A stretch of 62,523 bases of DNA, filler included, from an uncultured bacterium (GTDB lineage: Bacteria; DAOPZR01), in the NCBI GenBank assembly GCA_964637655.1. It is 5 parts of 5 records of this genome, joined end to end, with 100 filler letters (N's around TTAATTAATTAA, not from the genome) between each part and the next. Parts side by side here need not be neighbours in the genome. Positions count along the whole stretch, not along the records: positions 12,721 to 25,290 come from CAZWUZ010000096.1; 4 more parts are not named here. The stretch is one strand, 5' to 3'. The position numbers and the translations under genes were made by a program. The notes beneath the pieces are model-generated. The model searched no databases. It saw only the letters and a program-made list of their open reading frames with translations, and was not told the DNA's origin. Below are positions 7,696 through 26,680 of this stretch, piece by piece; the first letter of the stretch is position 1; each line of letters opens with the position of its first letter.

Positions 7696-7703
7696 GCCTG
7701 CAC

Positions 7704-8858: not shown

Positions 8859-11072
8859 TTATCGCTTATCTGTTTCGCTTTGGCAAAGCCGGGCAGAACA
8901 CGCGACAAGCAACAGCCAGACAGCCGCGCCCGCCATAAGCAGAAGTCCAACGCGGAAATGAATGGGGTTGAACACCATGACCACACGGCTGTTTCCCGGC
9001 ATGACCGGGACCGCCCGGAAACAGGTATTGGCCCGAACAACAGGAACCGCCTTCCCGTCAACCTCGGCTTCCCAGCACGAATGATGCTTGTCGGAAAGAT
9101 ACAACCAGGCCGGCGCGGTACTCTCCACTTCGATAACGATACGTTCCGCTTCGTCACAGAGAATGCGCGCGGAGCCTGTGCCGGGACGTACCGCATGCCG
9201 CCGTGACACACCCGGTTCCAGCAACAGCGTCGTGTGGCAAGGAAACCCCGGATCACACAACAGAGACAGGGCCCTGTCATCAGTGGCCTCGAGCGCATGA
9301 TAGAACAGCCGTGCACGCGGCATAACGCTGTCATCGCGGTAGACATTGCTCCCGCCGGGGCCGGCGGCAATGACCGGAAACGGCAGCGTGTCCCGACTGA
9401 CCAGATAGCGCACATTCAGCAACCGGTTAAACCGGGGTGAATAGACCGTTTCATTGTCCTCGCCATCAAGGAGCACGAGGAATTTCTCGTAGCTGCGGCT
9501 GTTGAACGTGATGAACCCGTCCACCCCGCGCAAGCCATGCCACAATTGAGTTTCCCCGCAGAACGGGCCATCGCTCAGCGGACCGAGCTGACGTATGCGC
9601 TCCTGTCCGATACTCGCGCGCAGTCGCGACGGAAACCCGGCCGCGGACGCAAATAACTCCCGCGGGGCGAAACTGAAATGCGGCACCGCGTACAGCGTCA
9701 GTTCGGCAACAATACAAACAGCGGCCGCGGCAGTGCACCAGCGCTCCCGATACGTACGGCGCACGAACCATGCCAGGCAGGTAAGCGCCAGGAGCGGGCT
9801 GAGCCGTTGCAACAGTGACACCAACGGCACGTGGCGCAACCAAACGGAAGCGATAAGCACGCCGGCGCCTGCGGCCAGCAGCAGACCATAACGGCTGCGC
9901 TGCCAACGAGTACGATCAATGACCACAGCACCGAGCACGATAAGGGCAAACTGCACGAGCACGCGTGCCCGCAGATGGTGCATGCTTTGCAGCAGCGGGC
10001 AGGCGGCATTGACCACCTCGTTGAACGTCCGGCTGAACGTGAACATTCCCCCCAGCAGCAGCAACACGATATACGGTGCCACACGCCGGTCCCGGCAGCA
10101 CAGCGCCCCGGCCGCAAATACCGGCAGGACGATACCGACGAAATTTGCCCCGCCCACATAGCCGATCGGGCCGGTATACTGCCCGGGCGGCCCGAATGCC
10201 TGCGGGACGAACAGCAATAACAGCATGGCCGGTGGCAAAGTCCGTATGCTGTCGCCCGACGCCCTGTCGCTATCGCCAAAAGATAGCGCCGTAGGAAACA
10301 GTTGCGGCATGGCCAGGAGGATGCCCCCGACAAGCATCAGGGCGGCGGCCCGCACTGCCAGTCGCCGCTGTCGCGGCCGCAGCAGCGCCTCCGTCCATGC
10401 AACAACAGCAAGCGCCAGCACACAGTATAGCGCTACCTGCGTGTGACCGGCCAGGAACGGCATGGCCGTGAGCACAGCCCCCGCTGCAGCCGGAGCAAGC
10501 GTCCGGCGCAGCATGGCGAGACGATGGGCAGCCAACAGCCACGGCAGCCAGCTGGCTGCCCCTGTCATACTGAGCATCCCGGTCATCGCGGTGAAGAATC
10601 CGCATAAGCCGAACGCGATGCCGCCTGCCGTCGCCATCAACGGACGCACAGCCAACAACCGCAACAGGACAAACATACCGGTCGTGCACAACAGGTAATG
10701 CAAGATACTGATGTACGAAAACGCAGTCAGAGCGTCAAGCGGCAGCAAGAGCAGTTTGAACGGATAAAGTACCCCGGGTTCCGACTCCGCCAGGAACGGG
10801 TGGCCGGCACGGGAATACGGATCCCAATGGGGCAAAGCACCCGACTGCATGGTCCGCCAGTGGTGCATATGGTGCGGCAGAAAATAGTGCACTGCATCCC
10901 CCGGACCGCGGGCATACTGCTGCAACACCTCGTCAGGCAGCACCGTCGTAAGGGTAAACCGGGAGACAAGGCCAACTGGGCACAATACCCGGTCGGCAGC
11001 AATTACCGGAAGGAACAGTATCCCGGCGGAGAAAAACAGGACAGCCAACGGAACAAACTGTTTTATCGCCAT
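8859..11072 (-). CDS. YfhO-family membrane protein (GT-C glycosyltransferase-like)
   Basis: LPHWDPYSRAGHPFLA, AGHTQ, LLNVRYL, PRA, W.A.VDG...RAN.CFRAV; many TM segments. Confidence 0.82.
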   Translation of the reverse strand: MAIKQFVPLAVLFFSAGILFLPVIAADRVLCPVGLVSRFTLTTVLPDEVLQQYARGPGDAVHYFLPHHMHHWRTMQSGALPHWDPYSRAGHPFLAESEPGVLYPFKLLLLPLDALTAFSYISILHYLLCTTGMFVLLRLLAVRPLMATAGGIAFGLCGFFTAMTGMLSMTGAASWLPWLLAAHRLAMLRRTLAPAAAGAVLTAMPFLAGHTQVALYCVLALAVVAWTEALLRPRQRRLAVRAAALMLVGGILLAMPQLFPTALSFGDSDRASGDSIRTLPPAMLLLLFVPQAFGPPGQYTGPIGYVGGANFVGIVLPVFAAGALCCRDRRVAPYIVLLLLGGMFTFSRTFNEVVNAACPLLQSMHHLRARVLVQFALIVLGAVVIDRTRWQRSRYGLLLAAGAGVLIASVWLRHVPLVSLLQRLSPLLALTCLAWFVRRTYRERWCTAAAAVCIVAELTLYAVPHFSFAPRELFASAAGFPSRLRASIGQERIRQLGPLSDGPFCGETQLWHGLRGVDGFITFNSRSYEKFLVLLDGEDNETVYSPRFNRLLNVRYLVSRDTLPFPVIAAGPGGSNVYRDDSVMPRARLFYHALEATDDRALSLLCDPGFPCHTTLLLEPGVSRRHAVRPGTGSARILCDEAERIVIEVESTAPAWLYLSDKHHSCWEAEVDGKAVPVVRANTCFRAVPVMPGNSRVVMVFNPIHFRVGLLLMAGAAVWLLLVACSARLCQSETDKR

Positions 11073-11164
11073 CGCCCCCCCACCGGGTGTATTCAATCCT
11101 TGTACCAACAACGTTGTCACCCTGTCAAATTGATTGTCGCGGAATAGCGTCTTGTGCAGTAATG

Positions 11165-11173
11165 TGTTACACT
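11165..11173 (+). promoter_or_regulatory. Extended -10 element (TGTTACACT) 7 nt before ATG; probable leaderless promoter
   Basis: TGn-TACACT at 11165-11173, ATG at 11181, no SD. Confidence 0.45.
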
Positions 11174-11180
11174 GCGCATT

Positions 11181-11828
11181 ATGCAAACTCAGTCGCTGGC
11201 CTGGCAACTCTACTTTTCACGCAACCTGCTGCAACAATTGTTGCGCGTCTACCGGCGACTGGTCATTGCCCCTGCCCTCGCTCATTATGCCCGCCGCTAT
11301 TTTAAGCCGCGCGGTATCTTCATCGAAGCCGGGGCAGGTACTTCGGAATCATCCTGTCGCCTGCAACACCGGCGTACGGTCATCGCCTTCGACTGGAACA
11401 CGCATGTCCTGCAGCGGCACAACATCTTTTCCCGGCGGGTTGCGGGTAATCTGTTCGCGCTACCGTTCGCTCCGGCCAGCGCGGACGGTATCTGGAACCT
11501 CGGCGTAATGGAGCATTTCCCCCCCGGCGAAGCGGTACTCGTGCTGCGCGAGTGTGCCCGCGTGCTCAAGTCTGACGGTACCCTGTTGCTCTTCTGGGCT
11601 CCTGCTGACGCCTGGTACCAGCACCTGATCCGCATTGCCGAGCAGTTGGGACAATGGTGCCGGCGCCCCTTCCATCTTTCGCCGCCACAAGTCAACCTCT
11701 ATCGGCGACAGGAAGACATCGCCCCGCTGCTCGCTGCCGCCGGACTGACCTGTACCGCAGTCGCATACCATTGGCGTGACCTGCACTCATATGTGCTGAT
11801 TGTCGCCCGGCATGGCAAGGGCAACTGA
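11181..11828 (+). CDS. Class I SAM-dependent methyltransferase
   Basis: IEAGAGTS motif I, LPF, NLGVMEHF, RVLKSDG. Confidence 0.82.
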   Translation: MQTQSLAWQLYFSRNLLQQLLRVYRRLVIAPALAHYARRYFKPRGIFIEAGAGTSESSCRLQHRRTVIAFDWNTHVLQRHNIFSRRVAGNLFALPFAPASADGIWNLGVMEHFPPGEAVLVLRECARVLKSDGTLLLFWAPADAWYQHLIRIAEQLGQWCRRPFHLSPPQVNLYRRQEDIAPLLAAAGLTCTAVAYHWRDLHSYVLIVARHGKGN

Positions 11829-12620
11829 TGCGCATCCTCTTCGTCTGTCGCGGTGTCGAGCAGTTCGGCATCGGCATGCTCAGTGCGCTGGCGCGGCGCG
11901 ACGGGCATACCGTCGGTCTGCTCTTCGATCCGGGTATCGATGACCTCTTTTTCATCCCCTCGGGTCCGCCAGGGCGCTGGCTGGAAGAGCGCCTGCAGCG
12001 GCGCCTGGTAAACGCGGCCGTTGCCTTCCGACCGGACATCGTCGCCGCTTCCTGTTTTTCCAATGCCTTTCCCTACCTGCGCCGGTTGCTCCTCCGCCTG
12101 CGCAACGCTGTTCCGGCATACTATGTGCTCGGCGGCATCCATGCTTCGCTCGCACCGGAGCATGCGCTGCGTACCTGTCCGGCACTCGATGCCGTCGCTG
12201 TCGGGGAAGGCGAACGTTCCTTTCCCGCCCTGCTCCGGCGGTTGGCCGCAGGAAACACGCCGCACGACCTGCCCGGTTTCTGGTTCCGTTCAGGCACGCA
12301 CATCATCAGGAACCAACGGGGCGATCCCGTCACCGACCTGGAAACGCTCCCCGCTCCTGATAAACTGCTGTTCCATGCCAGCGGGGTCTTTCGTCACACG
12401 CTTGCCTACACCACCAGTCGGGGTTGTCCCTACGCCTGCAGTTTCTGCCAGACCCCCATGCTGACCCAAACCTTCGGCCCGGGCCGCATCCGTCGCCTCT
12501 CGCCGGCCACGGTCGTCGACCACCTGCAGCTGTACCGCCGGCAATTTTCGTTGCAGAGAATCACGTTCCAGGATGATGATTTTCTCTACGATGCCGCCTG
12601 GCTGGAGGAGTTTTCAGCCC
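11828..12620 (+). CDS. Cobalamin-dependent radical SAM protein (3'-truncated)
   Basis: GIGMLSA, GGIHAS, GEGE B12-binding domain; SRGCPYACSFC; FQDDDF. Confidence 0.87.
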
Positions 12621-12720
12621 NNNNNNNNNNNNNNNNNNNNNNNNNNNNNNNNNNNNNNNNNNNNTTAATTAATTAANNNNNNNNNNNNNNNNNNNNNNNN
12701 NNNNNNNNNNNNNNNNNNNN
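12621..12720. other. Artificial contig linker
   Basis: N44-TTAATTAATTAA-N44 (stops in all six frames). Confidence 0.98.
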
Positions 12721-14782
12721 TGAACAGCAGCGGGTACGGCTGCGGCGTGGATCTGTCACGGATACCACTGCGAAATCTCATTTCATAGTTTTTGAGCACT
12801 CCATTCAAATATGCTCTATGCCCGTTTGGTCCCCAACTCTGCGTCAGATGATACCAAACGTCATTTTTCATCTGTTGCAGCAACGCTGGATAAATGGTAG
12901 TGCCGAAATCCATCGCTAATCCATTGTTTGCATAACTGCAATAGTAGACAGAAGGAGAACCGTAATTATATGCCCAGAACCAGGCCAAGCCCTCGCCATT
13001 ATGTGGACGAACCCATGCCATCACTGTTCCTTCTTTAAGAAAATCAGGCCAGACCTCGTATGCGGCCTGTTGAACCGGAGAAATACTTATTGCCTGCCCG
13101 ATTTTTCCTTCGACATAGGTGGAAATCATCGTGTCTCCCGACGCCTTATTGGAACCGTCGAATGGTTCGTAAATAGCAAGCTGTTGTAGCAATTTATCTA
13201 AGTCATCGCGACTGATATTCCCCGAAGTTGAATGGAATATTTGCTCGCTATGCGTATCAAGCGGAACATTTGCATGCTCGACATTCCGTAATAATGAAGT
13301 AAGTACATGATCTCCCTGTGTATCAACTGCGGTCAATTGATAAAGACAGACGATACCAACCGATGGAATGATTAGCAGTTTTCCTAACGCAATAAGCCGT
13401 TCACCAATTCGCCGCCCGCCTGCCGGTAAAACGCCCAGAATTGACAGTTCCATCTTTACCCGCCGCCGCCGCGCTATCAGCAGATCCGCGTCATGCCGCA
13501 GTTCCACGATTGGTGCAGCCCGCAATTCGTATTCCTGCCGCAATAATGCCACTGCCTGTTCCCTCTCGGTCGCTTCCTTATCCAAATCATCCACCCGCTC
13601 TTTTGCTTCCAAATGATCCGCAAGATACAGACGCATTTGTGATTCGTCACCATCGCGCTGCGCCCGTTTCGCCGCCTTCTCACATTCCCGCATCGCCACC
13701 CGGGCCTCGTCCACCCGCGCCCGAACCCGATTCTGTAGCAATGTCGCTTCTTCCAACCGCTGCCGCGCATTTCCCATCTCAAGTTCAGCCGCCGATAACT
13801 CGTCCCGCATCCGAACTTCGGTCAGTTCCGTCCGGTTGAACACCTCTATCCACTGGTACCGTATCCACATCGCCACCCGCGCCCAGGCCCGTTTCCAACC
13901 CGAGACGCGGTGTCGCTCGATTTCATGTTCAAGCGGTGCGGACACCACCGCAAACAGCAACGTGATTGCCTCGCCCTTCTCCCACCGTTCGATATCCGCG
14001 AAAACCGACTGGCAATCTGTGTATCGGTTTGATGGTTCACACGCCAGCAAGCGCGCCAATAATCCATCGGCTTGTGGCGCCAAACCATCGATAATCGTTG
14101 TCGCCGCCGGGTAGATGCCACATTTGTGCGCTCTCAGAATCGCCACTGGCGTCGCGCCCGCGAACGGGAACCGCCCCGTCAGCATCCGGTACAGCACCAC
14201 GCCCGCCGCGTACAGGTCCGATTGCCGGCCCGCGCCTTCGCCCCGCGACAATTCCGGCGCCATGTATTCAATCGTGCCGAGCATTTCACCGGTTTGTGTG
14301 AGCGAGATTTCCTCCTCGATGATCCGCGCCAGCCCGAAATCCGCCAGTTTGATCGTATCCGTCGCGGCATCGCGCAGAATATTCCCCGGCTTCAGGTCGC
14401 GGTGGATCACGCCCATCTCATGCGCCACACCCAGACCGGCGAGGATCTGTTTGAAATAATGCAATGCTTTTTCCACCGGTAATGGTTGCGTGAGCATTTC
14501 CCGCAGCGAGCCGCCATCCATGTACTCCATTGCCAGGTAATGATATTCGGCAATCGTTCCAACTTCGTAGACCGCCACCACATTGGGATGGCGCAGCCGC
14601 GCTGCCGCCCGCGCCTCACGCTCGAACCGCGCCACCGCGGTCGGCTGTACCGTCAGTTGCGGCCACAGCACCTTCAGCGCCACCTCGCGGTCAAGGCGGG
14701 TGTCGCGGGCGCGATATACCTTGCCCATCGCCCCGCTGCCAAGTTCCGCAATCAGTTCGTAGTTGCCAATCCGGTTCGCCAT
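12721..14782 (-). CDS. Membrane Ser/Thr kinase 1: Hanks kinase - PspA-like coiled coil - TM - LamG/ConA-like ectodomain (3'-truncated)
   Basis: GSGAMGKVY, VALK, HRDLKPGN, DFG, YMAPE; TM LLIIPSVGIVCLYQL; GKIGQA, GTVMAWV, WYHLTQSW, AYLNG typical of LamG. Confidence 0.88.
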
Positions 14783-14833
14783 AGTCCCTGATTTCTACTC
14801 CGTACCGTATCTGTTCAGCCGGTCCCATGTTTT

Positions 14834-14852
14834 CCTCTCCCGACGGGAGAGG
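14834..14852. repeat. REP-like hairpin core CCTCTCCC-GAC-GGGAGAGG
   Basis: Same stem as copies at 50710-50876 and 56316-56349. Confidence 0.55.
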
Positions 14853-14974
14853 TGACTGATTGGCTGAATGGTCACTCCGTACCAGTCAATTTGCGCTCAG
14901 CGTTGTGCCGCTCTCGCGACGAAGTGATACAGCGCTAAGTTAGCCAGCGTATCTGAATTGCGCTGCTCAAATCA

Positions 14975-16909
14975 TTACTGCCGAAAATCGACGCGAAATC
15001 CGTTGCGCATGAAGCTCCGGATGACGTTTGCCCTTTCTTGTGCCGCCGGCGAATCGGGCGGAACCGCGACACCGGCACAGTCGGGATACCGCTGCGTCAG
15101 CGCCGCATATTCCGCCTGCAGCCACTCGAACCAGCGCTGCCACTCGTCATCTGCGATATATTGCGTTACCACCTGGCGATAGCGCGGTTGCCGCTGAAAG
15201 CTGACGTACATCATTTCCTGGCAATGCTTATCGAGAACGCCGAACCAGGGCTGCGGTTGGTCGTCAATACGCGCCAGTTTGATTTCCAGCGGTTGCGCAC
15301 GGTCAGCGGGCAGCGAAAACCGGTCGTCGCGTCGTGCGGTGCCATACCATTCGCTCACGAACATCTGGCTATCGCCCAATTTGGCATAGAATCCCGCGTG
15401 CCCGTGCGGGTGTACGTAAATGCCGCTGGTAACCATCGGCAAATCGGCAGCAACTGGAATACTAATCGCTCCGTCAGCACCGGTAAACGACACGGCAAAG
15501 CCCGGCGCACTGTTCCCCAATTGATGCACGACAACCGCGTCAGCCAGCGGCTGACCCGTAGCTTCGTCCGACAACCGAAGCTTGATGGCCGCTCCCGCCG
15601 GCACGGCGGGGGCGGCAACAGCCGGCGAAGCAGCAGGAACATTCGCTAACGCAGCAAGCCCGAGGTGTCGGGCAATAGCCAGTTGCGCAACGATTTCATG
15701 GCTGGCCTCGAGATGACCCAGCCGCCCTGGCGGGGTGCTGTCCCAGACACAACTGTCAACCAGCAGTTTCGCCCGCATCGCCGCAGCGGCCGGATGGGTG
15801 CTGTACCTCAGCCGGTATTTCGCCCATTCCGCCAGATACGGGTCAACTTCCAGGCACGGGTGCTCGCCGACGGCCAGTCGTCCCAACCAGTCAATCTGCT
15901 CTTCCACCGGCATCGCACGCAGCCGCAGCATGAATGCGGCGCTGTTCACCGCCCGTTGTATTTCCAGTTCGCGGCTTGCCAGGTATGTGTTCAGCGTTGC
16001 CGAGTCACTTGCGGTGCCGACACTCCCCAGCGCCAACAGCACCTTGCCGAACTCGTGGCGGCGCGCTTGCGGGCCGCGCGCGGCCATGGTGCGCAGGAAC
16101 AGCAGGCAGGCGGTGTCGCCTTGCGTGGCTAATCCCTGCGCGGCCACCATGCGCATCTGGTCTGATTGGCCAGCATCAGCAACGCAGGCACGCAGGGCCG
16201 CGACCGTTTCCGGCGCGGGAAAGCCGCCCATGACATACGCCAGCAATTCCTTGCGGGCCGAGTCGGTGATGGAGTTGAATTCTTCGGCAAGAACCGCCGC
16301 ATGGGCATCACCCTGCAGCAAAACAAGCGCATGGTGGCAGCCCGCGACCATCGGCGCATCATGCGGATGGCGCTTGAGCATATCCTGCACCAGCACAACG
16401 TCCTGTTCCGTACCCAGCGTGCCCAGCAGCGTCCAGCGCGGGTCAGCCCAATCGCAGGCGGTCATGGCCGCGACGGACTGCCGCAATGCCTCGCGCGCGG
16501 CGGTGTCCTGCAGGAGCAGCGAGACCTGCGCGTTGACTTCGGTGATACGGCCGCCGAGTTTGCCCATCGCTTCCGTAACCGGCATCAGCCGTTGGGCGAT
16601 AAGCACCCGCCCGTCAGCCCTGAGTTTCCGGCATAATAATAGCGGGTCGGCCGGCGGTTGGCCATACGCAACAAAAAAGCCGATACGGTCGGGGCCGACC
16701 ACCGCGGTCGGGTTGAACCCGTAACCCTGCAACATAGCGCTAATTGCGTCCGAAGTCGGCGGCGGGTCGGCACAGCGCAACGCCAGCACCGGCGTGTCGG
16801 TTGCGCCAGCGGCAATTCTGGTGGCAGACAAAGTGTCGCCGCACGCATACCCGGAAACCACCAGCATCAGACATCCGCACAGCAGCATGCCACGCATCAT
16901 CGCTGTCAT
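14975..16909 (-). CDS. Secreted protein with HEAT-like repeats and a C-terminal beta domain
   Basis: AGGAGG RBS; signal peptide; LGTLGT, MRMVAAQGLA, LALGSVG repeats; D..TGQPLADA.V segment. Confidence 0.6.
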   Translation of the reverse strand: MTAMMRGMLLCGCLMLVVSGYACGDTLSATRIAAGATDTPVLALRCADPPPTSDAISAMLQGYGFNPTAVVGPDRIGFFVAYGQPPADPLLLCRKLRADGRVLIAQRLMPVTEAMGKLGGRITEVNAQVSLLLQDTAAREALRQSVAAMTACDWADPRWTLLGTLGTEQDVVLVQDMLKRHPHDAPMVAGCHHALVLLQGDAHAAVLAEEFNSITDSARKELLAYVMGGFPAPETVAALRACVADAGQSDQMRMVAAQGLATQGDTACLLFLRTMAARGPQARRHEFGKVLLALGSVGTASDSATLNTYLASRELEIQRAVNSAAFMLRLRAMPVEEQIDWLGRLAVGEHPCLEVDPYLAEWAKYRLRYSTHPAAAAMRAKLLVDSCVWDSTPPGRLGHLEASHEIVAQLAIARHLGLAALANVPAASPAVAAPAVPAGAAIKLRLSDEATGQPLADAVVVHQLGNSAPGFAVSFTGADGAISIPVAADLPMVTSGIYVHPHGHAGFYAKLGDSQMFVSEWYGTARRDDRFSLPADRAQPLEIKLARIDDQPQPWFGVLDKHCQEMMYVSFQRQPRYRQVVTQYIADDEWQRWFEWLQAEYAALTQRYPDCAGVAVPPDSPAAQERANVIRSFMRNGFRVDFRQ

Positions 16910-16966
16910 CTATCCTCCTATTGCTTCATGTTTTGTCATCGCCGCATGACTGACACTTCCATTGTC

Positions 16967-19396
16967 TCATCTCGGCAGAAATCCTTCCACCAATCCTAAC
17001 GGCACGTTCAATTTGCTGTTGCCGCCAACCAGCAGGATCTCGCGGTTCACGGCCACCGCCCTCCCCATCAAGCGCTGCGCCCGCATCAGGGAAACTTCCG
17101 TCCAACTATTCTTGCGCGGATCGTATTCCACCACCCATCCTGGGGGATCCTGACCAAAGCGAGAGTCGCCAATCAAATAGATCTTGTCATTCAAGGCAAC
17201 TGCATTCAGCGTGGACATTCTGCGCATCTCCGGCAGTGGCATCATTTGTTCCCAACGATCGGTCCCCGGGTCGTACCGTTCCATTGAATCCAAACTTCCG
17301 CCGCGCACATTTCCAGACTCAGCGGTGCCGGGGGCGATGTCATATTTCCGACCGCCAATGAGATAGATTTTTCCTGCATGAACCGCAACCGCGGCTCCAC
17401 ACCGTGAAGTGCCAAGCGGAGCCGCCACCCGCCAACTGCCTGTCACCGGATTGAAAACATCGACATTGGTCAGCGTCTGCCCGCCGCGAGCAGGAAAGCC
17501 ACCAATGTAGTATATTTCATCCCCGACCGCAGCCAGCGCATAATCCACCCGTTGGGTGGGCAGTCTGGACGCCTGCCAGCTGAGCCGGGTTTGCGGATCG
17601 TATTCCCGAACAATGTCATGGAACGAGTAGTAGATTTTCCCCCGCACCGTAACCGCATTGATACCCGCTACGGGTTCAGCTATCCTTCCCCATGATTCCC
17701 AGAGATTTCTTGCCGGGTCATACCTTTCCACGGTGTCAAGTGTTCGCATCGCGGTCCGCCGGTTACGCCCGGCAACGCCTGATGATGGCGGGATCTGTTC
17801 ATCGACGTGCCCGCCCAGCACAAATACTTTTTCTTTTACCACTACCGCAGCGAAACCGGCTCGCCCTGTCCGCAATGGCGCTTTTGTCGTCCAACCGGGA
17901 ACCTCCAATTCAATAGCGTCATTCGCATCTGTGGGGTCCTCCATTATTTCTGTTTCCGAATTTGGATGGCGGGCCCGGATAGCCAGTGACGGGGACGGAT
18001 TCATGGCCGGTCTCCGGTTAGCAGCCGCCGGCTGAATTTGCGACCGAATTGCCGGCGACAGTAGTAGGGTCTCTGGTGACAATATATACCAGGCGCCGGC
18101 GATGATGATCAGAACCGGCCCGAATAGTTTGACCGCCGCCAGGAATCGCTCGCCCGGCCGCCGGCCGCCAACCGGCAGTATGCCGAGGATCGATATTTCC
18201 AATTTGGCCCGACGCCGCCGCGCCAGGGTCAGGTCGGCGGCATAGCGCAATTCGGCAACTCGCCTGGCGCGCATCTCGTATTCCTGCCGCACCTGTTCCA
18301 GCGTTTGCTCCGGCCGGACGGTATCTGCCCGCGTCGCGCGTGCATTCCGCAGCAGCGTAGCCTCCTCCAACCGGCACCGCGCAAGGCCCAATTCCCGTTC
18401 CGCTGCCGTGACTTCATCGCGGATTCTCACGGCAGTCAGTTCAGTTAGGTCAAACATCTCCAGCCACTGGTGGCGAAACCAGCCCGCCACCCGCGCCCAT
18501 GCCCGTCTGCTAATCGCCACCCGATGCCGCCCGGTCCGGAAAGCCTCTGGCGGTTCATCCGCCACCAATCCCGCGGCAATCACTTCACCATATTGCCAAC
18601 GTCGGAGATCAGTTAGTACCGCCTGGCAGTCGGCATAACGGTTCATTGGATCGCTGGCCAGCAACCGTGCCAGGACCGCGTCCGCCTGCGGCAGCAGTCC
18701 CGCAACGGTGGACGTCGCCAAGGGGTAAGCTCCGCTCTCATGCGCTTCCAGTATTGCCGCCGAACTCTCACCCGTAAACGGCAGCCGCCCGGTCAGCATG
18801 CGGTACAAGATCACACCCGCCGCGTACAGGTCGGATTGCCGGCCCGCACCTCCGCCCCGCGCCAGTTCCGGCGCCATGTACTCGATTGTCCCGAGCATTT
18901 CGCCCGACTGGGTCAGCGAGGTTTCATCCTCGATAATCCGCGCCAGCCCGAAATCCGCCAGTTTCACCGTGTCAGTAGTTGATTCAATCAGGATGTTCGC
19001 CGGTTTCAGATCACGGTGAATAACTCCCAGGTCATGCGCCGCGGCCAATCCGGAAAGAATCTGCCTGAAATAATGAAATACTTTTTCGCCGGTCAGCGGC
19101 TTGTCCAGGATTTCCCGCAGGGAATGCCCCGCGACGTATTCCATAGCAAGGTAGTGGTAGCCGTCCGTGGCGCCAACATCGTAAACCTTTACCACATTCT
19201 GGTGCCGGACCCGGGCCGCCGCCCGCGCCTCGCGCTCGAACCGCGTCACCGCCGCCGCATGCTCCGCCAGTTGCGGCCACAGCACCTTCAGCGCCACCTG
19301 GCGATCGAGGCGGGTGTCACGGGCGCGATACACCTTCCCCATCGCCCCGCTCCCAAGATCGGCGAGCAATTCGTAAGGCCCGATACAGTTTGCCAT
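16967..19396 (-). CDS. Membrane Ser/Thr kinase 2: kinase - internally deleted PspA-like domain - TM - Kelch propeller
   Basis: Complete kinase motifs; TM LFGPVLIIIAGAWYIL; Kelch repeats FVLGG..VERYDP..W, YYIGG..VFNP..W, YLIGG..RYDP..W. Confidence 0.9.
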   Translation of the reverse strand: MANCIGPYELLADLGSGAMGKVYRARDTRLDRQVALKVLWPQLAEHAAAVTRFEREARAAARVRHQNVVKVYDVGATDGYHYLAMEYVAGHSLREILDKPLTGEKVFHYFRQILSGLAAAHDLGVIHRDLKPANILIESTTDTVKLADFGLARIIEDETSLTQSGEMLGTIEYMAPELARGGGAGRQSDLYAAGVILYRMLTGRLPFTGESSAAILEAHESGAYPLATSTVAGLLPQADAVLARLLASDPMNRYADCQAVLTDLRRWQYGEVIAAGLVADEPPEAFRTGRHRVAISRRAWARVAGWFRHQWLEMFDLTELTAVRIRDEVTAAERELGLARCRLEEATLLRNARATRADTVRPEQTLEQVRQEYEMRARRVAELRYAADLTLARRRRAKLEISILGILPVGGRRPGERFLAAVKLFGPVLIIIAGAWYILSPETLLLSPAIRSQIQPAAANRRPAMNPSPSLAIRARHPNSETEIMEDPTDANDAIELEVPGWTTKAPLRTGRAGFAAVVVKEKVFVLGGHVDEQIPPSSGVAGRNRRTAMRTLDTVERYDPARNLWESWGRIAEPVAGINAVTVRGKIYYSFHDIVREYDPQTRLSWQASRLPTQRVDYALAAVGDEIYYIGGFPARGGQTLTNVDVFNPVTGSWRVAAPLGTSRCGAAVAVHAGKIYLIGGRKYDIAPGTAESGNVRGGSLDSMERYDPGTDRWEQMMPLPEMRRMSTLNAVALNDKIYLIGDSRFGQDPPGWVVEYDPRKNSWTEVSLMRAQRLMGRAVAVNREILLVGGNSKLNVPLGLVEGFLPR

Positions 19397-19443
19397 CAGG
19401 TCAGCTTATCTCCATCCAACCGGCAAAATTTCAGCGGCAATTC

Positions 19444-21963
19444 TCAGGGAACATACAGTTCCGCGGCGTCAAACCCGTTACTGTTGATATCGGTCCCGCC
19501 CAACAACAGGATGCCATCGTCAACCGGGACCGCGGCAAGACGGCACCGGGCTTGCGCCATATCACGCCCAGTCGTCCAGCGGTTGGTTGCCGGGTCATAA
19601 ATCTGCACGCGCGCCATAACCGCACGCGCTCCGTTTAAGCCGGCGCTCAGTCCGCCAAACACGTAGATGCGGTTTTTCCATACCACGGCGGCAGCAAAGG
19701 CGTTCGCCTCCGGCATTGAGGCAACCCGTTGCCAGCGGTAAGTGGCGGGATAATAGGCCATCACATCGCTAATTGACTCGTTGGGATTCATGCGGTTGCC
19801 ACCGAAAATATATATCCGGTCACCCAAGCCCGCCGCGGTGGCATAGCCCCCGATACCTGCCGGGCCAGTCCGCGTCTCCCAGCTATTGGCGACCGGGTCA
19901 TAGATCTGCACCACATACGGGTCGTTGCCCGACGGCTCGCATCCGATAACATATACCCGCCCGTCGGCGGCAACCACCGCCGGCGTATGGTTGCGCGCAT
20001 ACGGCATTGGCGCACAAGCACGCCAGGCATCGGTGTTCGGGTTGTAGATGTACGCCTCGCGCCGGTTGTGCCACCCGTCAAACCCGCCGCAAACAAACAG
20101 CTCATCGCCAAGCGCCGTCCCGCACGTTGCCGACGCGAGCAGCGGATACGGCGTTCCCTGGCTCCAGCGCCGTGTCCGCAAATCAAGAATTTCGTTAACA
20201 TCGAGCATGTAGGTCGGCTGCCGATGAAATCCGGTAACCGCAATCACCCGGTCACCCAAACGCGCCGCAATCAATTCGCTGCGCGCCGTCAGCAAAGCGC
20301 CATACGGACTGGGAATCGACGGCGGCGTGGCCCGCGGCGTGGTCGGCGGCCCATATTGCTTCCAGGCGTCAACCGCATCAGGCGGGGTCAGCGCCTCTTG
20401 TCCCGTTAGGGATGGCGATGGCGGGATGGCTGGTGGCACAATCACCGGCGTCGCTTCAATAGTCGGTGCAATTGCCATCGTTCTCACCGGCAACACCGAT
20501 TGATCGGACCGCAAGAGAAAATGCAGGCCGATCCCTGCGAGTAGCAGCGGGGCGAACAGCTTTGCCGCCGCCAGCAGCCGCTCGCCCAAGCGCCGTTCAC
20601 CAGCCGACAGCACACCAAGCACCGACATTTCCAGTTTCGCCCGCCGCCGCCGCGCCAGCAGCAGGTCAGCGTTATGCCGCTGCTCCGCGCTCGCCGCCGC
20701 CTTGCCCTCGTACTCCTGCCGCGCCAGTTTCAGCACCAGCTCCGACTCACCGGCCTCTTTTCCCAACTCTTCCGCCCGCTCTTTGGCTTCCAGTTTGGCG
20801 GCGAGGTGCTGTCGCGTCTGCGTTTCATCACCCGCCGCGTGCGCCAGTTCCGCCGCCGTCTCGCATTCCCGCATTGCCGCACGCGCTAAGTCCGCCCGCG
20901 CCCGCACCCGGTTACGCAGCAGCATTGCCTCTTCCCGCCGCCGCCGCGCCTGGCCCAGTTCGTTTTCCGCGGCGCTCACTTCATCCCGCAACCTGACCGC
21001 AGTCAGTTCCGTCCGGTTGAACAGTTCCAGCCATTGATAGCGGTACCACGTCACCATCCGCGCCCACGCCCGCTTCCATCCCGGCACCCGGTGGCGTTCG
21101 AGTTCGTGGTCAATCGGTTCGTACGCCGCCGCGAACTCCGGCGGAATATCCCCGCCCCGCTCCCACTTTTCAAGATCAGCAAAAACCGCCTGGCAGTCCG
21201 CGTAGCGATTTGCCGGTTCACAGGCCAGTAAGCGCGCCAAAACCGCATCCGCCTGCGACGACAAGCCCGCCATCACTGTCGAGGCCAGCGGATAGGTCCC
21301 GCATTCATGCGCCTTAAGGATGGCCGAAGGGGTTGCGCCCTGAAAGGGGAGTCTTCCCGTCAGCAGGCGATACAGAACCACGCCCGCCGCATACAGGTCG
21401 GTCTTGCGCCCGGCACATTCGCCCCGCCCCAATTCCGGCGCCATGTACTCGAGCGTCCCGAGCATTTCACCTGACCGGGTCAGCGTAACCTCCTCTTTTA
21501 TGATCCGCGCCAGCCCGAAATCCGCCAGTTTCACCGTATCGGTCGCTGATTCGATCAGGATATTGCCCGGTTTCAGGTCGCGATGGATCACGCCCTGCTC
21601 ATGCGCCACGCCCAAGCCGGAAAGAATCTGTTTGAAGTAGTGGAGGGTCTTATCGACCGGCAGCGCCTGTTTCAGCAATTCCCGCAGCGAGCAGCCGGCC
21701 ACATATTCCATCGCGAGGTAGTGGTAACCGTCAGCCGCGCCAATGTCATGCACCGCCACCACATTGGCATGCTGCAGCCGCGCCACCGCCCGCGCCTCAC
21801 GTTCGAAGCGCGCCACCGCCGCCGGCTGCTCCGCCAGTTGCGGCCACAACACCTTCAGCGCCACCTCGCGATCGAGGCGGGTGTCACGGGCGCGATACAC
21901 CTTGCCCATAGCCCCACTCCCGAGGTCGGCGGTTAATTCATAGTACCCGATCCGGTTCACCAT
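19444..21963 (-). CDS. Membrane Ser/Thr kinase 3: kinase - PspA-like domain - TM - Pro-rich linker - Kelch propeller
   Basis: Complete kinase motifs; TM LFAPLLLAGIGLHFLL; about 6 Kelch repeats (FVCGG..YNP..W, YIFGG..YYP..W, YVFGG..YDP..W). Confidence 0.9.
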   Translation of the reverse strand: MVNRIGYYELTADLGSGAMGKVYRARDTRLDREVALKVLWPQLAEQPAAVARFEREARAVARLQHANVVAVHDIGAADGYHYLAMEYVAGCSLRELLKQALPVDKTLHYFKQILSGLGVAHEQGVIHRDLKPGNILIESATDTVKLADFGLARIIKEEVTLTRSGEMLGTLEYMAPELGRGECAGRKTDLYAAGVVLYRLLTGRLPFQGATPSAILKAHECGTYPLASTVMAGLSSQADAVLARLLACEPANRYADCQAVFADLEKWERGGDIPPEFAAAYEPIDHELERHRVPGWKRAWARMVTWYRYQWLELFNRTELTAVRLRDEVSAAENELGQARRRREEAMLLRNRVRARADLARAAMRECETAAELAHAAGDETQTRQHLAAKLEAKERAEELGKEAGESELVLKLARQEYEGKAAASAEQRHNADLLLARRRRAKLEMSVLGVLSAGERRLGERLLAAAKLFAPLLLAGIGLHFLLRSDQSVLPVRTMAIAPTIEATPVIVPPAIPPSPSLTGQEALTPPDAVDAWKQYGPPTTPRATPPSIPSPYGALLTARSELIAARLGDRVIAVTGFHRQPTYMLDVNEILDLRTRRWSQGTPYPLLASATCGTALGDELFVCGGFDGWHNRREAYIYNPNTDAWRACAPMPYARNHTPAVVAADGRVYVIGCEPSGNDPYVVQIYDPVANSWETRTGPAGIGGYATAAGLGDRIYIFGGNRMNPNESISDVMAYYPATYRWQRVASMPEANAFAAAVVWKNRIYVFGGLSAGLNGARAVMARVQIYDPATNRWTTGRDMAQARCRLAAVPVDDGILLLGGTDINSNGFDAAELYVP

Positions 21964-22008
21964 GACATGGCATTACCCCGTTTCGTCAGAATCCGCAAAT
22001 CGCGCCGT

Positions 22009-22272
22009 TCATATCGTTGCCGGCGCCGATTCCCCGATGAGGCGGGCCATCATCTGCTGGACGGCAACCCGGCGCAAGCGGGCCTCAGTGCACATCCGTT
22101 CGGCGTCATTTCTCCGAAACTGGTCACGCGCCGTTTGGAGTTCGGCCAGCAACTGCTCGCGTCTGACCAGATCAGGTTCCCGCCGGGCCGCCGCTAATCG
22201 CACGACCAGTTCCTCCCGCTCCGCCGCGAGTTCGTTCCCGATAGCCACGGCAAGGGTATTGTCCCAGAGCAT
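22009..22272 (-). CDS. Small helical/coiled-coil hypothetical protein
   Basis: AGGAG upstream; co-oriented between pspA and kinase 3; charged helical sequence. Confidence 0.6.
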   Translation of the reverse strand: MLWDNTLAVAIGNELAAEREELVVRLAAARREPDLVRREQLLAELQTARDQFRRNDAERMCTEARLRRVAVQQMMARLIGESAPATI

Positions 22273-22295
22273 CGCCCACTCTCCTGAACGTCGCC

Positions 22296-22988
22296 CTATT
22301 TGCCCCCGTCTTTCTTCGCCGGCTTGTTCTTCATCCGTTCCTTGAGCGCGGCCAGTTCATCGTCGAGCGCCTCGTTTTTCGACATCTGCGCAAACTGTGC
22401 TTCAACATCGTCGGTGCCAAGTTCCTTGGCCGCCGCCGCCTGCGCCTCCAGGTCCTCGATTCGCGCCTCGGCCTGCTCGAACAGCGTGAGGGAACTGGTC
22501 CCCTTGCCGCCGATCCCAGTCATCGTCTGCTGCAATTGAGCCGTCGTCTTGGCCCGCTGATGCTTGGCCGCAAGGATGTTTTTTTTCCGCCGCGCTTCGT
22601 CGATCTTCGCCTCAAGCGCCTTGAGCGAACTCTTCAGTGATTCAATACCCGCACGCTGGGACCCGAGTTCAGCGGAATAGACCTCAGCGAGCTGGTTCTG
22701 CTCTTTCTGCCGGCGCAATGCCTCCTTGGCAAGATTGTCGTCGCCTTTCTGCACCGCCAGTTCCGCCTTCTTGTCCCAATCCTTTGCCGCCTGCACCGCA
22801 TTTTCGCACTTCAGCGTCAGTTTTTTCTCGTCGGCGATAGCCCGGGCCACCTGGGTCCTGGCTTCCTGATACTCACCTTCCATGTTCTGCACCAGCTTTT
22901 CCAGCGTGGCCACAGGGTTCTCGACCCGCGAAATCAGCGCGTTGATGTTGGCCGAGATGGTAATGCCGATCCGTTCCAGAATGTTCAT
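22296..22988 (-). CDS. pspA: PspA/IM30 family protein (bacterial ESCRT-III-like)
   Basis: ANINALISRVENP, W..KAELAVQKGDDNLAKEAL, FEQAEARIEDLEAQA, DDELAALK; GAGGAGG RBS. Confidence 0.95.
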   Translation of the reverse strand: MNILERIGITISANINALISRVENPVATLEKLVQNMEGEYQEARTQVARAIADEKKLTLKCENAVQAAKDWDKKAELAVQKGDDNLAKEALRRQKEQNQLAEVYSAELGSQRAGIESLKSSLKALEAKIDEARRKKNILAAKHQRAKTTAQLQQTMTGIGGKGTSSLTLFEQAEARIEDLEAQAAAAKELGTDDVEAQFAQMSKNEALDDELAALKERMKNKPAKKDGGK

Positions 22989-23030
22989 GTTCTCCTCCTC
23001 GTTGGTTTTTACTGCCTGCCCTTTGCTAAA

Positions 23031-23046
23031 GCACGATGCGTGCCAA
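23031..23046 (-). promoter_or_regulatory. Sigma54 -24/-12 promoter of pspA
   Basis: TTGGCACGCATCGTGC = GG-N10-GC with TGGCACG, about 45 nt upstream of the pspA ATG. Confidence 0.9.
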
Positions 23047-23096
23047 CCGCCAAAACTGCCGGTTTGAGATCAAAAACCGGATGCCGCACGCGCGAG

Positions 23097-23136
23097 CATG
23101 GCGAAATTCGCCATGCCGATGGCGGCTTTCGCCATC
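23097..23136. promoter_or_regulatory. Two tandem palindromic upstream activator sites (probable PspF UAS)
   Basis: CATGGCGAAATTCGCCATG and GATGGCGGCTTTCGCCATC, 50-90 bp upstream of the -24 box. Confidence 0.75.
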
Positions 23137-23155
23137 GGTACGAACGCAAAGGACA

Positions 23156-24121
23156 TCACAATTGGTGTTTTTTCTGGAGGCGGCGAAATTGGTCGTAGCC
23201 GAGACCGAGTGCGGCGGCGGCGGACTTGCCATTCGGTGCGGTCCGCAACGCCGCGGCCAGAAGCTGTTTTTCGAAGGCGGCAACGCGGCTGGTGAAGTCA
23301 CCCTCGGTAGCGACTGGCAATTCCCCGCGTCGCGGCGGCAGGTGTCGAGCCTCGATAATTGCCCCGTCAGCCACCACCGCCGCCGCCTCGATGGTCGCCC
23401 GCAATTCGCGGACATTGCCCGGCCATGGCCGATAAGCAAGGTCCAGCAGCGTCTCGTCAGCAAGCCGGGCGGCCGGAAGCCACGGCATTTCCACACGAAT
23501 TTGCGCAAGAAAATGGCTGGCCAGATCGGGTATGTCTTCGCGCCGTTCATACAATGCCGGAACATGGACCTCTGCATAGCGGATACGGTCGTAGAGGTCG
23601 GCGGAGAATTCGCCCGCGGCAATCTGTTCCTCAAGGTCGGCATTGGTCGCTGCAATAATCCGCACATTTACGTCGATGGCGCCGCTGCCGCCGACCCGTT
23701 CAAATCGCTGATATTCAATCACCCGCAGCAGGAGTTTCTGCAGATCTAGTGGCATATTGCCGATCTCATCGAGAAAGAGGGTGCCACCATCCGCCTGCTC
23801 AAGTTTGCCGGGGCGGCGGTCGGTGGCCGAGGTGAACGCCCCCTTTTCATGGCCGAATATTTCGCTTGCCATCAGCCCTGACACAAGGCCGGCGGCATTG
23901 AAAACCACGAAGGGCTTATCCTGACGCGGCGAAAAATGATGCAGCAGGCAGGCAACCGCCTCCTTGCCCGAGCCACGAGGCCCGCGGATCAAAACCGGGC
24001 GGGGAAAGGGCGCGACCCGTTCAATAATCCGGCGAAGTTCCTGCATCGCCGGGCTGGTCCCGATTAGTCGGTAGCGTGAAGCAGAACCGGGCTCCCGCGC
24101 CAGCCTCGAACATTCAGTCAT
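23156..24121 (-). CDS. pspF: PspF-type sigma54 activator (AAA+ plus HTH, no N-terminal sensor)
   Basis: [46 protein letters not shown]-terminus [17 protein letters not shown] parallels PspF LGLTYHQFRALLKKHQI. Confidence 0.88.
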
Positions 24122-24197
24122 CTGCATCCCCCCGCGAATTGCCAATCCGTAGGTGATTCAATACCCCGCCTCCACGCCTGTTCCTGCCGCTGACCGC

Positions 24198-24226
24198 ATC
24201 GTAGCATCGCCCATCCCATCAAGCAA
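24198..24226 (-). promoter_or_regulatory. Putative sigma70 promoter of pspF
   Basis: TTGCTT-N17-TACGAT with TG extension. Confidence 0.5.
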
Positions 24227-24306
24227 CCGGAGGATTTGCCGTAGGGAGCGCGCCTGGCCGGCGTGCTCACCCCCGGCACGGTGCCCGGTTTGCCAACTGC
24301 GAACGT

Positions 24307-25290
24307 TCAGCGGCGGCGGACGCTGCTGATCCCCTCCGTGTCGCGCAGGCGCTGCTGCACCTGCGTGCCGTGCGCGCTGTCGCGCACCTCGACATCGAAC
24401 GCGAGCGCGGCGCTGCCGTCGGGCTGCGCCGCGGCGTGCGAGGCGAGGACATAGGCGCCGGCGGCGGCGATGGCATTGAGCGCGTCGCTGAGCAGGCCGC
24501 GCCGGTCGCGTCCCTGCGCGTGCAGGCGCAGGCGGTAGCGCTGCTCCGCCCCCGGCCGCCAGACGACGGGCACACAGCGCGCCGCGTCCTGCACCAGCGC
24601 CGCGCGGTTGGGACAGTCGTCGCGATGCACCGTCACTCCACGCCCGCGCGTGACATAACCGAACACCGCGTCGCCGGCCACCGGGTGGCAGCAGTGCGCG
24701 AGGCGCGCATAGGGGTCGCAGATGCCGTCTACCAGCACGTCGCTGCTGCACGCCGGCCCCGTGGCCGCAGTCGCCGCGGGGAGCGGCGCGGGGGCCGGCT
24801 TTTCCTTCGGCCCGGCGAGGTCCTGCACGAAGGTGCGCGCGGTCAGCCGCCCGGCGGCCAGCGCGGCATAGAGCGCGTCGCTGTCCTTCAGGCGGTGCCG
24901 GGCGAGCGTTTCGGCGTAGCGTTCATGACTGAAGACCCGCTCGAGTTTCAGCCCCTCCTGCCGTGCCGCCTTTTCCAGCAGTTCCCGGCCCGCCTGCCGC
25001 GCCTGCGCCTCGTCCTGCTCGCGCAGCACCCGCTTGATACGCGCTTTGGCCGTGGCGGAGACGACGAATTTCAGCCAGTCGCGCGACGGCTGATGTCCCT
25101 TGGTGGTGATGATCTCGACGATATCGCCGTGCTGCAGCGGGTGCGAGAGCGGCACCATCTTCCCGTTGACGCGCGCCCCCGTGCAGGTGCTCCCGACCTC
25201 GGTATGCACGGTGAACGCGAAATCCACGGGTGTGCTCCCCTCGGGCAGTTCCTTGACGTCGCCGCCGGGAGTGAAGACCAGCACCTCGGA
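24307..25290 (-). CDS. Long RelA/SpoT homolog, C-terminal part (TGS, ZFD, ACT); 5'-truncated
   Basis: VFTPGGDV..LP.GSTPVDFAF.VHTEVG, PSRDWL, AHCCHPV.GD, GRGVTVHR.DC.N, DR.GLL.D. Confidence 0.92.
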   Translation of the reverse strand, partial: SEVLVFTPGGDVKELPEGSTPVDFAFTVHTEVGSTCTGARVNGKMVPLSHPLQHGDIVEIITTKGHQPSRDWLKFVVSATAKARIKRVLREQDEAQARQAGRELLEKAARQEGLKLERVFSHERYAETLARHRLKDSDALYAALAAGRLTARTFVQDLAGPKEKPAPAPLPAATAATGPACSSDVLVDGICDPYARLAHCCHPVAGDAVFGYVTRGRGVTVHRDDCPNRAALVQDAARCVPVVWRPGAEQRYRLRLHAQGRDRRGLLSDALNAIAAAGAYVLASHAAAQPDGSAALAFDVEVRDSAHGTQVQQRLRDTEGISSVRRR

Positions 25291-25390
25291 NNNNNNNNNN
25301 NNNNNNNNNNNNNNNNNNNNNNNNNNNNNNNNNNTTAATTAATTAANNNNNNNNNNNNNNNNNNNNNNNNNNNNNNNNNNNNNNNNNNNN
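25291..25390. other. Artificial contig linker
   Basis: N44-TTAATTAATTAA-N44. Confidence 0.98.
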
Positions 25391-26322
25391 CGGACACCGG
25401 AAAAATATTTCCCGCGTCGGGACGGGCGCAGGAGGTGCGCGATGCGCTTTGGGCACACGCGGCGCAGCGCGGCGTGCAGCTGCGCACCGGTGCCGCCGTC
25501 ACCGGCCTGCAGGCGACAGCGGATGGCTGGGACGTGCAGGCGGGCGGCAGCACGCTGCACGCCACGGCAGTTATCATCGCCTGCGGCGGGCTGTCGTACC
25601 CGCAAACCGGGAGCGACGGCTCGCTCTGGCCGCTGCTGATGCGGCTCGGGCATACGCTTATTCCCGCCGTACCGGCACTGGTCCCGCTCGTCACGGATGA
25701 GTCGCCGCTGCAAGCGCTGGCCGGTTTGTCGCTCGCGGCCACCGTCACCGCGGTCGCCGGCAGCAGCCGCGCCACTGCCACGGGCGGCTTTCTCTTCACC
25801 CATCGCGGCTGCAGCGGCCCGGCGGTGCTCGAAGTGTCGCATATCGTTGCCCGTGCCCGGCAGCAGAGCCTGCCGTTTCGCGTGACAGCACGGTGGACGG
25901 CGGATGACGCCGCCGCGTGGCGCGCGCGGCTGCACGCCACCGGAGCGCGCCCCGTTGTCGCGCTGCTGCGCGAAACGCTCCCGGCGCGGCTCGCGGAGAC
26001 GCTCTGCCATCTGGCGGGCATCGCCCCGGAGGCATCAGCCAGTCAGTTGCGCCGCGATGAACGGGAATGCCTCATCACCCGGTTGACCGAGTGCGTGCTG
26101 CCGGTGGCAGGTGACGCGGGCTATGCCGCGGCGGAAATCACCGACGGCGGCGTGCGGCTGGACGAGGTGTCAGCCGCCACGCTGGCCAGCCGGCACTGTC
26201 CGCGTTTGTTCTTCGCCGGCGAAATACTCGATGTGACCGGTATGATTGGCGGTTACAATTTGCAGTGGGCGTGGACGTCAGGCCGGCTGGCCGGACTCGG
26301 CGCTGTTGCCGCTCGCGGATAA
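25391..26322 (+). CDS. HI0933/BaiN-family flavoprotein (5'-truncated)
   Basis: GGLSYPQTGSDG, LFTHRG.SGP, FAGEILDVTG.IGGYNLQWAWTSG. Confidence 0.9.
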
Positions 26323-26371
26323 CTCCGCCCGCGACGGGGCAAACCATCCGGTTGCGGCATCGGCCGGCGCT

Positions 26372-26662: not shown

Positions 26663-26680
26663 GGCATGCCTCCCCGGAAG

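Follow-up and report, generated by a model that had tools for sequence, protein, structure and literature searches.

Receptor Ser/Thr kinases with a PspA/Vipp1-type hairpin in a rare sigma54/PspF-type psp locus of an uncultured bacterium

The 62,523-base window analysed here, the whole stretch of DNA taken from an uncultured bacterium, contains a phage shock protein (psp) locus in which a pspF-like gene, a candidate sigma54 promoter and pspA are followed by genes for three receptor Ser/Thr kinases. Profile comparison and structure modelling indicate a PspA/Vipp1-type ESCRT-III hairpin (α0-α3) in each of the three kinases; the hairpin is without α4-α5 and is anchored by the transmembrane (TM) helix that follows it. 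In the literature searched, the receptor architecture of Hanks kinase, PspA hairpin, TM helix and variable sensor is previously undescribed. The locus is a real, rare Psp variant built around this new receptor architecture, for which we infer a functional wiring. It lies entirely within the 12,570-base contig at positions 12721-25290, whose left end cuts kinase 1 and whose right end cuts relA/spoT. All long open reading frames (ORFs) of this contig are on the minus strand. A sequence-only reading had described the string as pspF, upstream activating sequence (UAS) palindromes, sigma54 promoter, pspA, an 87-residue ORF (ORF87) and kinases, and the ORF, Pfam and motif scans agree with it.

The string begins with a gene for a PspF-like sigma54 enhancer-binding protein (bEBP; positions 23156-24121, minus strand), which matches Pfam Sigma54_activat (E 4.5e-60) and the AAA lid and has a C-terminal helix-turn-helix (HTH) domain. 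The Pfam domains begin at residue 27, and the protein is without an N-terminal regulatory domain. It is 46% identical to E. coli PspF in a collinear alignment and matches TIGR02974 from profile position 1 with 284.3 bits, below the equivalog cut-off of 443.55. Two UAS palindromes of the pattern TGGCG-N5-CGCCA (23099-23134) are spaced 21 bp centre to centre, about 85-105 bp upstream of the predicted transcription start. The expected number of such sites in the 62.5-kb window is 0.26 and the observed number is 3, a count that none of 100 shuffles reaches.

Between pspF and pspA, TGGCACgcatcgTGCTT is a candidate sigma54 promoter, 42 nt before the pspA ATG. Its -24/-12 element reads TGGCACgcatcgTGC(TT) (23031-23045, minus strand). 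The pattern TGGCAC-N6-TGC is not enriched in the window (31 matches at one mismatch or fewer, against 31.6 expected), and two of the 31 matches are exact, one of them being that at 23031-23045. The weight of the promoter call therefore lies in its position and conservation, not in enrichment. In a sister metagenome-assembled genome (MAG G001), the promoter is kept as TGGCACggttccTGCTT despite diverged flanks, and two UAS copies are kept with the same half-sites, one of them with a single mismatch.

The pspA gene (22296-22988, minus strand) encodes a full-length PspA/IM30 protein of 230 residues, which scores 141.5 bits against PspA_IM30 (PF04012; cut-off 33.9) and covers profile positions 1-217 of 220. 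It shares 32% identity with PspA of E. coli (E 1e-30). Its score against the NCBIfam equivalog TIGR02977 is 139.8, below the cut-off of 242.95, indicating that it is a member of the family and not the proteobacterial equivalog. As judged from sequence, PspA, a bEBP free of a regulatory domain, a sigma54 promoter and UAS motifs are all present, and the locus is a Psp-type module.

The three kinases follow in the order 3, 2, 1, all on the minus strand. Kinase 3 (19444-21963) consists of a Hanks kinase domain at residues 8-258, a PspA-like hairpin at about 298-454, a TM helix at about 462-484, and a Kelch propeller. By Pfam, alignments and hydropathy, kinase 2 (16967-19396) has the same order of parts, with a shortened hairpin and again a Kelch propeller. 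Kinase 1 (12721-14782) carries a ConA/LamG-like ectodomain, and its C-terminus is cut by the contig end; its Pfam matches are Pkinase (E 6.6e-53), PspA_IM30 (E 0.0046, residues 317-444) and a weak Laminin_G_3 (E 0.006). These are the three kinase domains of the window, all on the psp contig. The claim that the kinases have intact catalytic motifs, one TM segment and an ectodomain is borne out by the motif residues, which are invariant across the three (Gly loop, Lys37 of VALK, HRDLKPxN, DFG and APE), by a single hydrophobic segment in each, and by the Pfam assignments (Pkinase, E 2.8e-51 to 5.2e-54).

The kinases are paralogs, 53-57% identical overall. By part, the identity is 72-77% for the kinase domains, 60-66% for the PspA-like domains and 19-31% for the ectodomains. 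The cytoplasmic parts are thus conserved and the ectodomains have diverged, as would be expected if the kinases had one intracellular partner in common and different ligands. The database gene calls for kinases 3 and 2 (821 and 791 residues) are shorter by 18 codons at the 5' end and would begin within the Gly-rich loop; we use the longer starts (additional segments 21909-21963 and 19342-19396), which are backed by conservation of the N-terminus among the paralogs.

The kinase domain and the TM helix of each kinase are separated by a conserved stretch of about 180 residues, and the PspA-type hairpin is about 160 residues long. The domain is placed at 20602-21072 in kinase 3 (by hhalign, a search of PDB sequences and Foldseek), at 13421-13891 in kinase 1 (by Pfam, the family alignment and hhalign) and at 18167-18505 in kinase 2, all on the minus strand. 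The domain of kinase 2 is a short form, in which about 45 residues are missing around the tip and which aligns without gaps outside that deletion. Kinase 2 and the relative P0010 both have their deletions around the tip, which fits a hairpin fold.

When a gap-poor alignment of 10 juxtamembrane sequences is compared with nine aligned PspA proteins, hhalign gives a match over PspA residues 2-164 with a probability of 96% (E 4.5e-9). The score is 62.3 versus 17.0-17.2 for reversed controls and 16.6 for the best of 20 column shuffles, and the control probabilities are at most 0.6%. Because the reversed and shuffled controls collapse, coiled-coil composition is not the explanation of the match. When the juxtamembrane profile is searched against all PDB sequences, the top 13 matches are all Vipp1, PspA or IM30 (E 1.6e-8 to 6.4e-4), and the next is an Asgard ESCRT-IIIB.

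An AlphaFold2 model of kinase 3 residues 275-500 predicts two helices (21-102 and 106-175) followed by the TM helix, with a predicted local distance difference test (pLDDT) score of 79 and above 90 in the core. Foldseek places Vipp1 structures in the first five ranks for the model; their E-values run from 4e-3 to 1.6e-2, and no match reaches 1e-3. E. coli PspA(1-144) (PDB 4whe) superposes on the modelled hairpin with a root-mean-square deviation of 2.1 Å over 116 columns. The alignment stops at about PspA residue 164, where the TM helix comes next, and the kinase hairpin is without α4-α5. A Trp/Arg-rich α0-like helix in the kinases has a hydrophobic moment of 0.37-0.39, compared with 0.41 for PspA α0. 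The sequence-only reading had proposed the kinases as sensors coupled to PspA; the hairpin, a feature which it had missed, now provides a physical basis for that part of the proposal.

Relatives of the kinases are few. Outside the window, a word-based protein search with the juxtamembrane segment finds only P0009 and P0010. Three word-based protein searches return 4, 3 and 5 proteins, with one further new member, P0159. In a HMMER search of 1.84 billion protein representatives with the full-length profile of 838 positions, the matches listed are mostly generic kinases and Kelch proteins, and in 7 of the 150 listed the matched stretch runs through the juxtamembrane region. Three of the seven were known and four are new family members (P0026, P0027, P0038 and P0040), with a matched stretch that spans kinase, segment and TM helix. 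The relatives match PspA_IM30 directly: P0040 scores 49.8 bits (E 4.5e-13), above the cut-off of 33.9, and P0038, P0027, P0009 and P0026 score 33.4, 32.0, 21.0 and 19.9 bits, respectively. These matches are collinear with profile positions of about 2 to about 150. P0010 has no PspA_IM30 match at E 0.1 or below. The ectodomains of the relatives are beta-helix, FG-GAP or short. P0040 and P0159, from a Logan assembly, are kinase-PspA-FG-GAP paralogs whose hairpins are 58% identical, echoing the tandem paralogs of the window, and they are probably on one contig of 23,488 bases.

The kinase-PspA system is rare, found in one narrow lineage and in singletons without context. The rarity of the family is indicated and not proven, since each word-based search scored only the 8000 candidates sharing most words. 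Scans of metagenome contigs with the juxtamembrane alignment and with the PspA pair confirmed no relative. Across 400 relatives of G001, the juxtamembrane profile picks stand-alone PspA-sized frames (225-332 residues) in 23 genomes, and it picks a kinase-sized frame in G001 only. PspA matches are found in 12 of 60 relatives of G001, none of them close.

Among genome contigs, a scan with PspA finds 14 loci, of which one is close (88% in the best segment), that of G001. The other 13 loci, twelve from Thermus and one from Blastocatellaceae, are 35-39% identical. The gene order is kept in G001, with PspF at 81% identity, PspA at 89% and the counterpart of ORF87 at 53%; the UAS and promoter are likewise shared, and the contig ends after ORF87. 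At the DNA level, the conserved block is 22323-24073 (77.7% identity). A second G001 contig opens within the gene of a family kinase, at codon 8. This kinase has a LamG-like ectodomain, shares 73% identity with kinase 3 over residues 8-495 and scores 14.0 bits against PspA_IM30. The string in G001 is probably broken at the repeated 5' ends of the kinase genes, and the two contigs would be adjacent across the break. G001 (3.6 Mb) has only 2 Pkinase matches, one of which is the family kinase, and kinases are thus rare in this lineage. The genome also contains rpoN.

Stretches of the window are also matched in public wastewater metagenome runs from one study, and a groundwater metagenome of another study contains a relative. 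Three wastewater runs, which may be the source samples of the window, yield short single-run contigs that cross the pspA/ORF87, ORF87/kinase 3 and kinase 3/kinase 2 junctions without differences. In the groundwater run, one contig runs across the kinase 3/kinase 2 junction and differs at 72 of 1396 letters, and a second covers pspF and pspA. Conserved gene order, to which the sequence-only reading had looked for support, is thus present in pieces in G001 and in the groundwater relative; outside this lineage, the searches yielded six singleton family members without genomic context.

The genes from pspA to that of a 644-residue orphan protein are co-oriented and 23-57 nt apart. The gaps are 23 nt between pspA and ORF87, 45 nt between ORF87 and kinase 3, 47 nt between kinases 3 and 2, 57 nt between kinase 2 and the 644-residue gene, and 192 nt between that gene and kinase 1. 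By a simple scan, the intergenic gaps are free of promoter-like and terminator-like sites; the terminator-like sites, 5 in number against 11.4 expected, are all intragenic. This spacing suggests that the pspA string is co-transcribed. The sequence-only reading also held that pspB and pspC are missing from the contig, and the contig indeed has no room for them. The wider search was run on G001, where the profiles of PspB (PF06667) and PspC (PF04024) find nothing in 3.6 Mb and the controls respond.

ORF87 (22009-22272, minus strand; 87 residues) starts 23 nt after pspA and has no TM segment. It has no match in Pfam, NCBIfam or PADLOC. It is 53% identical to the ORF at the same position in G001 (E 9e-21), and the 86 aligned codons comprise 28 identical, 18 synonymous-only and 40 non-synonymous pairs. 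We considered and rejected two identities for its product. As the missing α4-α5 of PspA it gives an hhalign probability of 3.9%, and PspAA has, in the survey passage that describes it, a beta-sheet.

The 644-residue protein (14975-16909, minus strand) had been called secreted and HEAT-like. A signal-like hydrophobic segment at the N-terminus, the only one by hydropathy, agrees with the first part; the HEAT-like part is not confirmed, Pfam, Atlas and AlphaFold2 being uninformative. The protein has no Pfam match at E 0.01 or below, no NCBIfam match and no usable Atlas match, and at E up to 10 Pfam gives a chance-level SGNH match alone. A single-sequence AlphaFold2 model has a pLDDT of 39, too poor for a fold search; its low-confidence secondary structure begins with many short helices, continues with a beta region and ends in helices. 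Used as query, the protein finds no homolog in G001. A groundwater contig joins position 14782 to 16954 and skips this gene, with a shorter side of 36 nt only. In accordance, the core of the locus is pspF, pspA, ORF87 and the kinases, and the sequence evidence indicates that the 644-residue gene is probably accessory or inserted.

In enterobacteria, the membrane-sensor role is held by PspB and PspC, and PspF is controlled in trans by PspA. In the window, PspF is without a regulatory domain of its own and so would have to be controlled in trans. We judge it slightly better than an even chance that the kinases are integral to the sigma54/PspF-controlled psp module and take the sensor role of PspB and PspC. 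According to passages of PMC6003685, the soluble fragment PspA(1-144) of E. coli binds PspF at the W56 loop. The kinase hairpin corresponds to this PspF-binding part of PspA, and the kinases therefore appear to be built to dock onto the Psp machinery.

In the wiring that we propose, PspF would be regulated in trans, and the PspA-like hairpin of the kinases would serve as a docking surface for PspF, as PspA(1-144) does in E. coli, or for PspA assemblies, or for both. A periplasmic ligand or a perturbation of the membrane would alter the state of the hairpin and switch the kinase on. Changes in docking, together with phosphorylation of PspF, PspA or the 87-residue protein, would free PspF. The freed PspF would bind the two upstream palindromes and fire the -24/-12 promoter, which would raise the level of PspA, the effector, and of the sensor kinases themselves. 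The protein contacts, phosphorylation targets and signals in this scheme are ones that we infer. The more specific idea that the state of the hairpin (free, bound to PspF or packed in a PspA polymer) gates both the Hanks kinase and, through PspF, sigma54 transcription is tentative, and we regard it as possible but rather doubtful.

Several observations weigh against the kinases being part of the module. The synteny in G001 spans a contig break and is seen within one close lineage only, and the six family members outside the lineage are singletons without genomic context. The PspB/PspC negative comes from one MAG, whose completeness is unestablished. Spacing is the sole basis for proposing co-transcription, and the 192-nt gap before kinase 1 contains an 8-bp GC hairpin. 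W56 of E. coli PspF aligns with Gln in the window PspF and with Cys in that of G001, so the E. coli PspA-PspF contact is not simply transferable. Against PspA_IM30, the single window kinases are below the cut-off (17.0 bits for kinase 1 and 12.9 bits for the kinase 3 segment), and kinase 2 has no PspA_IM30 match in Pfam; domain membership therefore rests on the profiles and on the family relatives. Finally, the juxtamembrane profile scores 29.5 bits on the PspA of G001 itself versus up to 54.5 bits on PspAs of other genomes. The hairpin is thus not closest to the neighbouring PspA, indicating that the kinase-PspA fusion is old and that the adjacency to pspA could be historical.

The hairpin might act without contacting PspF. 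It could instead insert into, cap or nucleate PspA polymers at the membrane, in the manner of an ESCRT-III nucleator anchored there, such that receptor occupancy sets the site of assembly and clustering activates the kinases by proximity. The α1-α2/3 hairpin that the kinases keep is the packing unit of PspA/Vipp1 polymers, α4-α5 are missing and the TM helix sits at about PspA position 164, the α0-like helix has nearly the hydrophobic moment of PspA α0, and pspA is the first gene of the string. However, E. coli PspA(1-144) is, in the passages of PMC6003685 cited above, completely soluble and binds PspF, and hairpin-only forms are accordingly not known to polymerise. For a predicted complex of PspA with the kinase 3 hairpin, obtained without controls, the scores are 0.22 and 0.00, where the mark is 0.32; this result counts neither for nor against a contact. 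We consider such co-assembly unlikely, at roughly one chance in four put loosely.

It is less probable still that the kinases work independently of the Psp module, with the hairpin being only a dimerising coiled coil, the targets being unrelated, and the adjacency to pspA being historical or due to chance. The age of the fusion, seen in a hairpin with no special similarity to the neighbouring PspA, would fit such a reading, as would the family members outside the lineage that have no known context. The relA neighbour is not conserved, and gene order around the block is therefore fluid. However, the genes are tightly spaced with no intergenic signal found, and the block recurs in two relatives. 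G001 has only two kinase genes found, one of them that of the family kinase, and the contig of the latter begins inside this gene, at the very place in the string where the pspA contig ends. In addition, the hairpin is nearly as conserved among the paralogs as the kinase domain. A defence island against phages or predators, in which the kinases would sense infection as defence-associated Ser/Thr kinases do and PspA would protect the membrane, is very improbable: the kinase domains match PADLOC PD-T4-6, mad6 and MkoA and PspF matches the RtcR_PspF models, but the kinase matches extend over no more than the generic domain (residues ~5-275) and those of PspF over its AAA+/HTH part, and so they give defence no support, PspA, ORF87 and the 644-residue protein have no PADLOC match, and the contig has no CARF domain or other defence partner and no mobile-element gene. 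We favour the reading in which the kinases belong to the psp module and act as its sensors.

The gap before kinase 1 and the ends of the contig have further features. In the 192-nt gap, the hairpin at 14834-14852 (minus strand) reads CCTCTCCC-gtc-GGGAGAGG, followed by AAAAC and without a U tract. This hairpin might serve in processing or stabilisation, or might be a remnant of the insertion that brought the 644-residue gene. No second sigma54 promoter is seen in this gap. At the other end, the 3' part of relA/spoT (24307-25290, minus strand) encodes TGS, AH-RIS and ACT domains (Pfam; NCBIfam TIGR00691, E 1.6e-60) and is cut by the contig end. This C-terminal half lies directly upstream of pspF in the window contig and does not lie upstream of pspF in G001; relA/spoT is a neighbour of the psp module, not a member. 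Within the psp contig, the ORF and Pfam scan finds no mobile-element genes.

The window as a whole consists of five contigs (1-12620, 12721-25290, 25391-37874, 37975-50270 and 50371-62523), joined by N44-TTAATTAATTAA-N44 linkers at 12621-12720, 25291-25390, 37875-37974 and 50271-50370. Because of these joins, the psp locus can be read as a single physical piece only within 12721-25290, and gene order across the joins is meaningless. A run of ten N is also present at 34776-34785. The G+C content is about 53-64% in the psp contig and 65-72% in 25391-37874. A gene for a B12-binding/radical SAM protein (11828-12620) on the previous contig runs into the N linker and is unrelated to the psp locus. 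A Rfam scan of the whole window gives no match.

The locus touches the question of how PspA-family proteins, the bacterial ESCRT-III, are directed in place and time beyond the PspBC and Lia paradigms. It offers a wiring that can be tested, which would link periplasmic ligand sensing, Ser/Thr phosphorylation, an AAA+ activator and a membrane-remodelling polymer. If the proposed wiring is true, the kinases are a new sensor class for envelope-stress biology and a natural case of an ESCRT-III fold in transmembrane signalling. The Psp response would then be ligand-addressable through interchangeable periplasmic domains (Kelch, LamG, beta-helix and FG-GAP). The kinases would form a new receptor class, 'PspA-hairpin receptor kinases', joining ESCRT-III membrane repair to Ser/Thr phosphorylation.

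Fusions of PspA are reported to be rare, at less than 2% of homologs in PMC11237479. In passages of two surveys of the phage shock protein response (PMC11237479 and PMC9239133), the fusions named are tandem repeats, NlpC/P60, PspAA and PspC, and the word 'kinase' refers to histidine kinases or to an unrelated tyrosine-kinase TM annotation. In the portions available of an atlas of bacterial Ser/Thr kinases (10.1101/2025.01.12.632604), no PspA domain is among the architectures, and the one 'PSPA' is a peptide array. A full-text literature search for PspA_IM30 together with Pkinase gives no match. PspA with a Hanks-type kinase, or fused to a kinase, is not found described in the literature searched; the supplements and web applications of the two surveys may list rare architectures.

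The closest functional parallels are the Lia two-component system, fusions of PspC with histidine kinases, PspAA/PspAB and NlpC/P60 fusions, in which, as in the window, a sensor-kinase module is tied to an effector of the PspA family. Those systems use histidine kinases and response regulators, or partners that are not kinases. With receptor Hanks kinases of the PASTA (PknB/PrkC) type, the window kinases share an N-terminal cytoplasmic kinase domain, one TM helix and a C-terminal extracytoplasmic ligand-binding domain. In contrast to the usual short linker of PASTA-type kinases, they have a folded PspA hairpin of about 160 residues; their ectodomains are Kelch or LamG-like, and their genes follow pspA. 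The juxtamembrane domain resembles PspA, Vipp1 and IM30, including PspA(1-144) (4whe), in its alignment with PspA 2-164 and its superposition at 2.1 Å, whereas it is embedded in a transmembrane kinase, is without α4-α5(-α6) and is followed by the TM helix. The enterobacterial Psp system (pspF||pspABCDE of E. coli K-12) has in common with the window a PspF free of a regulatory domain, PspA, and a sigma54 promoter with two UAS before pspA. It differs in that pspF is divergent in E. coli and co-oriented upstream of pspA in the window, and in that W56 of PspF is not conserved in the window. In place of pspB, pspC and pspD, the window has a soluble 87-residue ORF and the receptor kinases.

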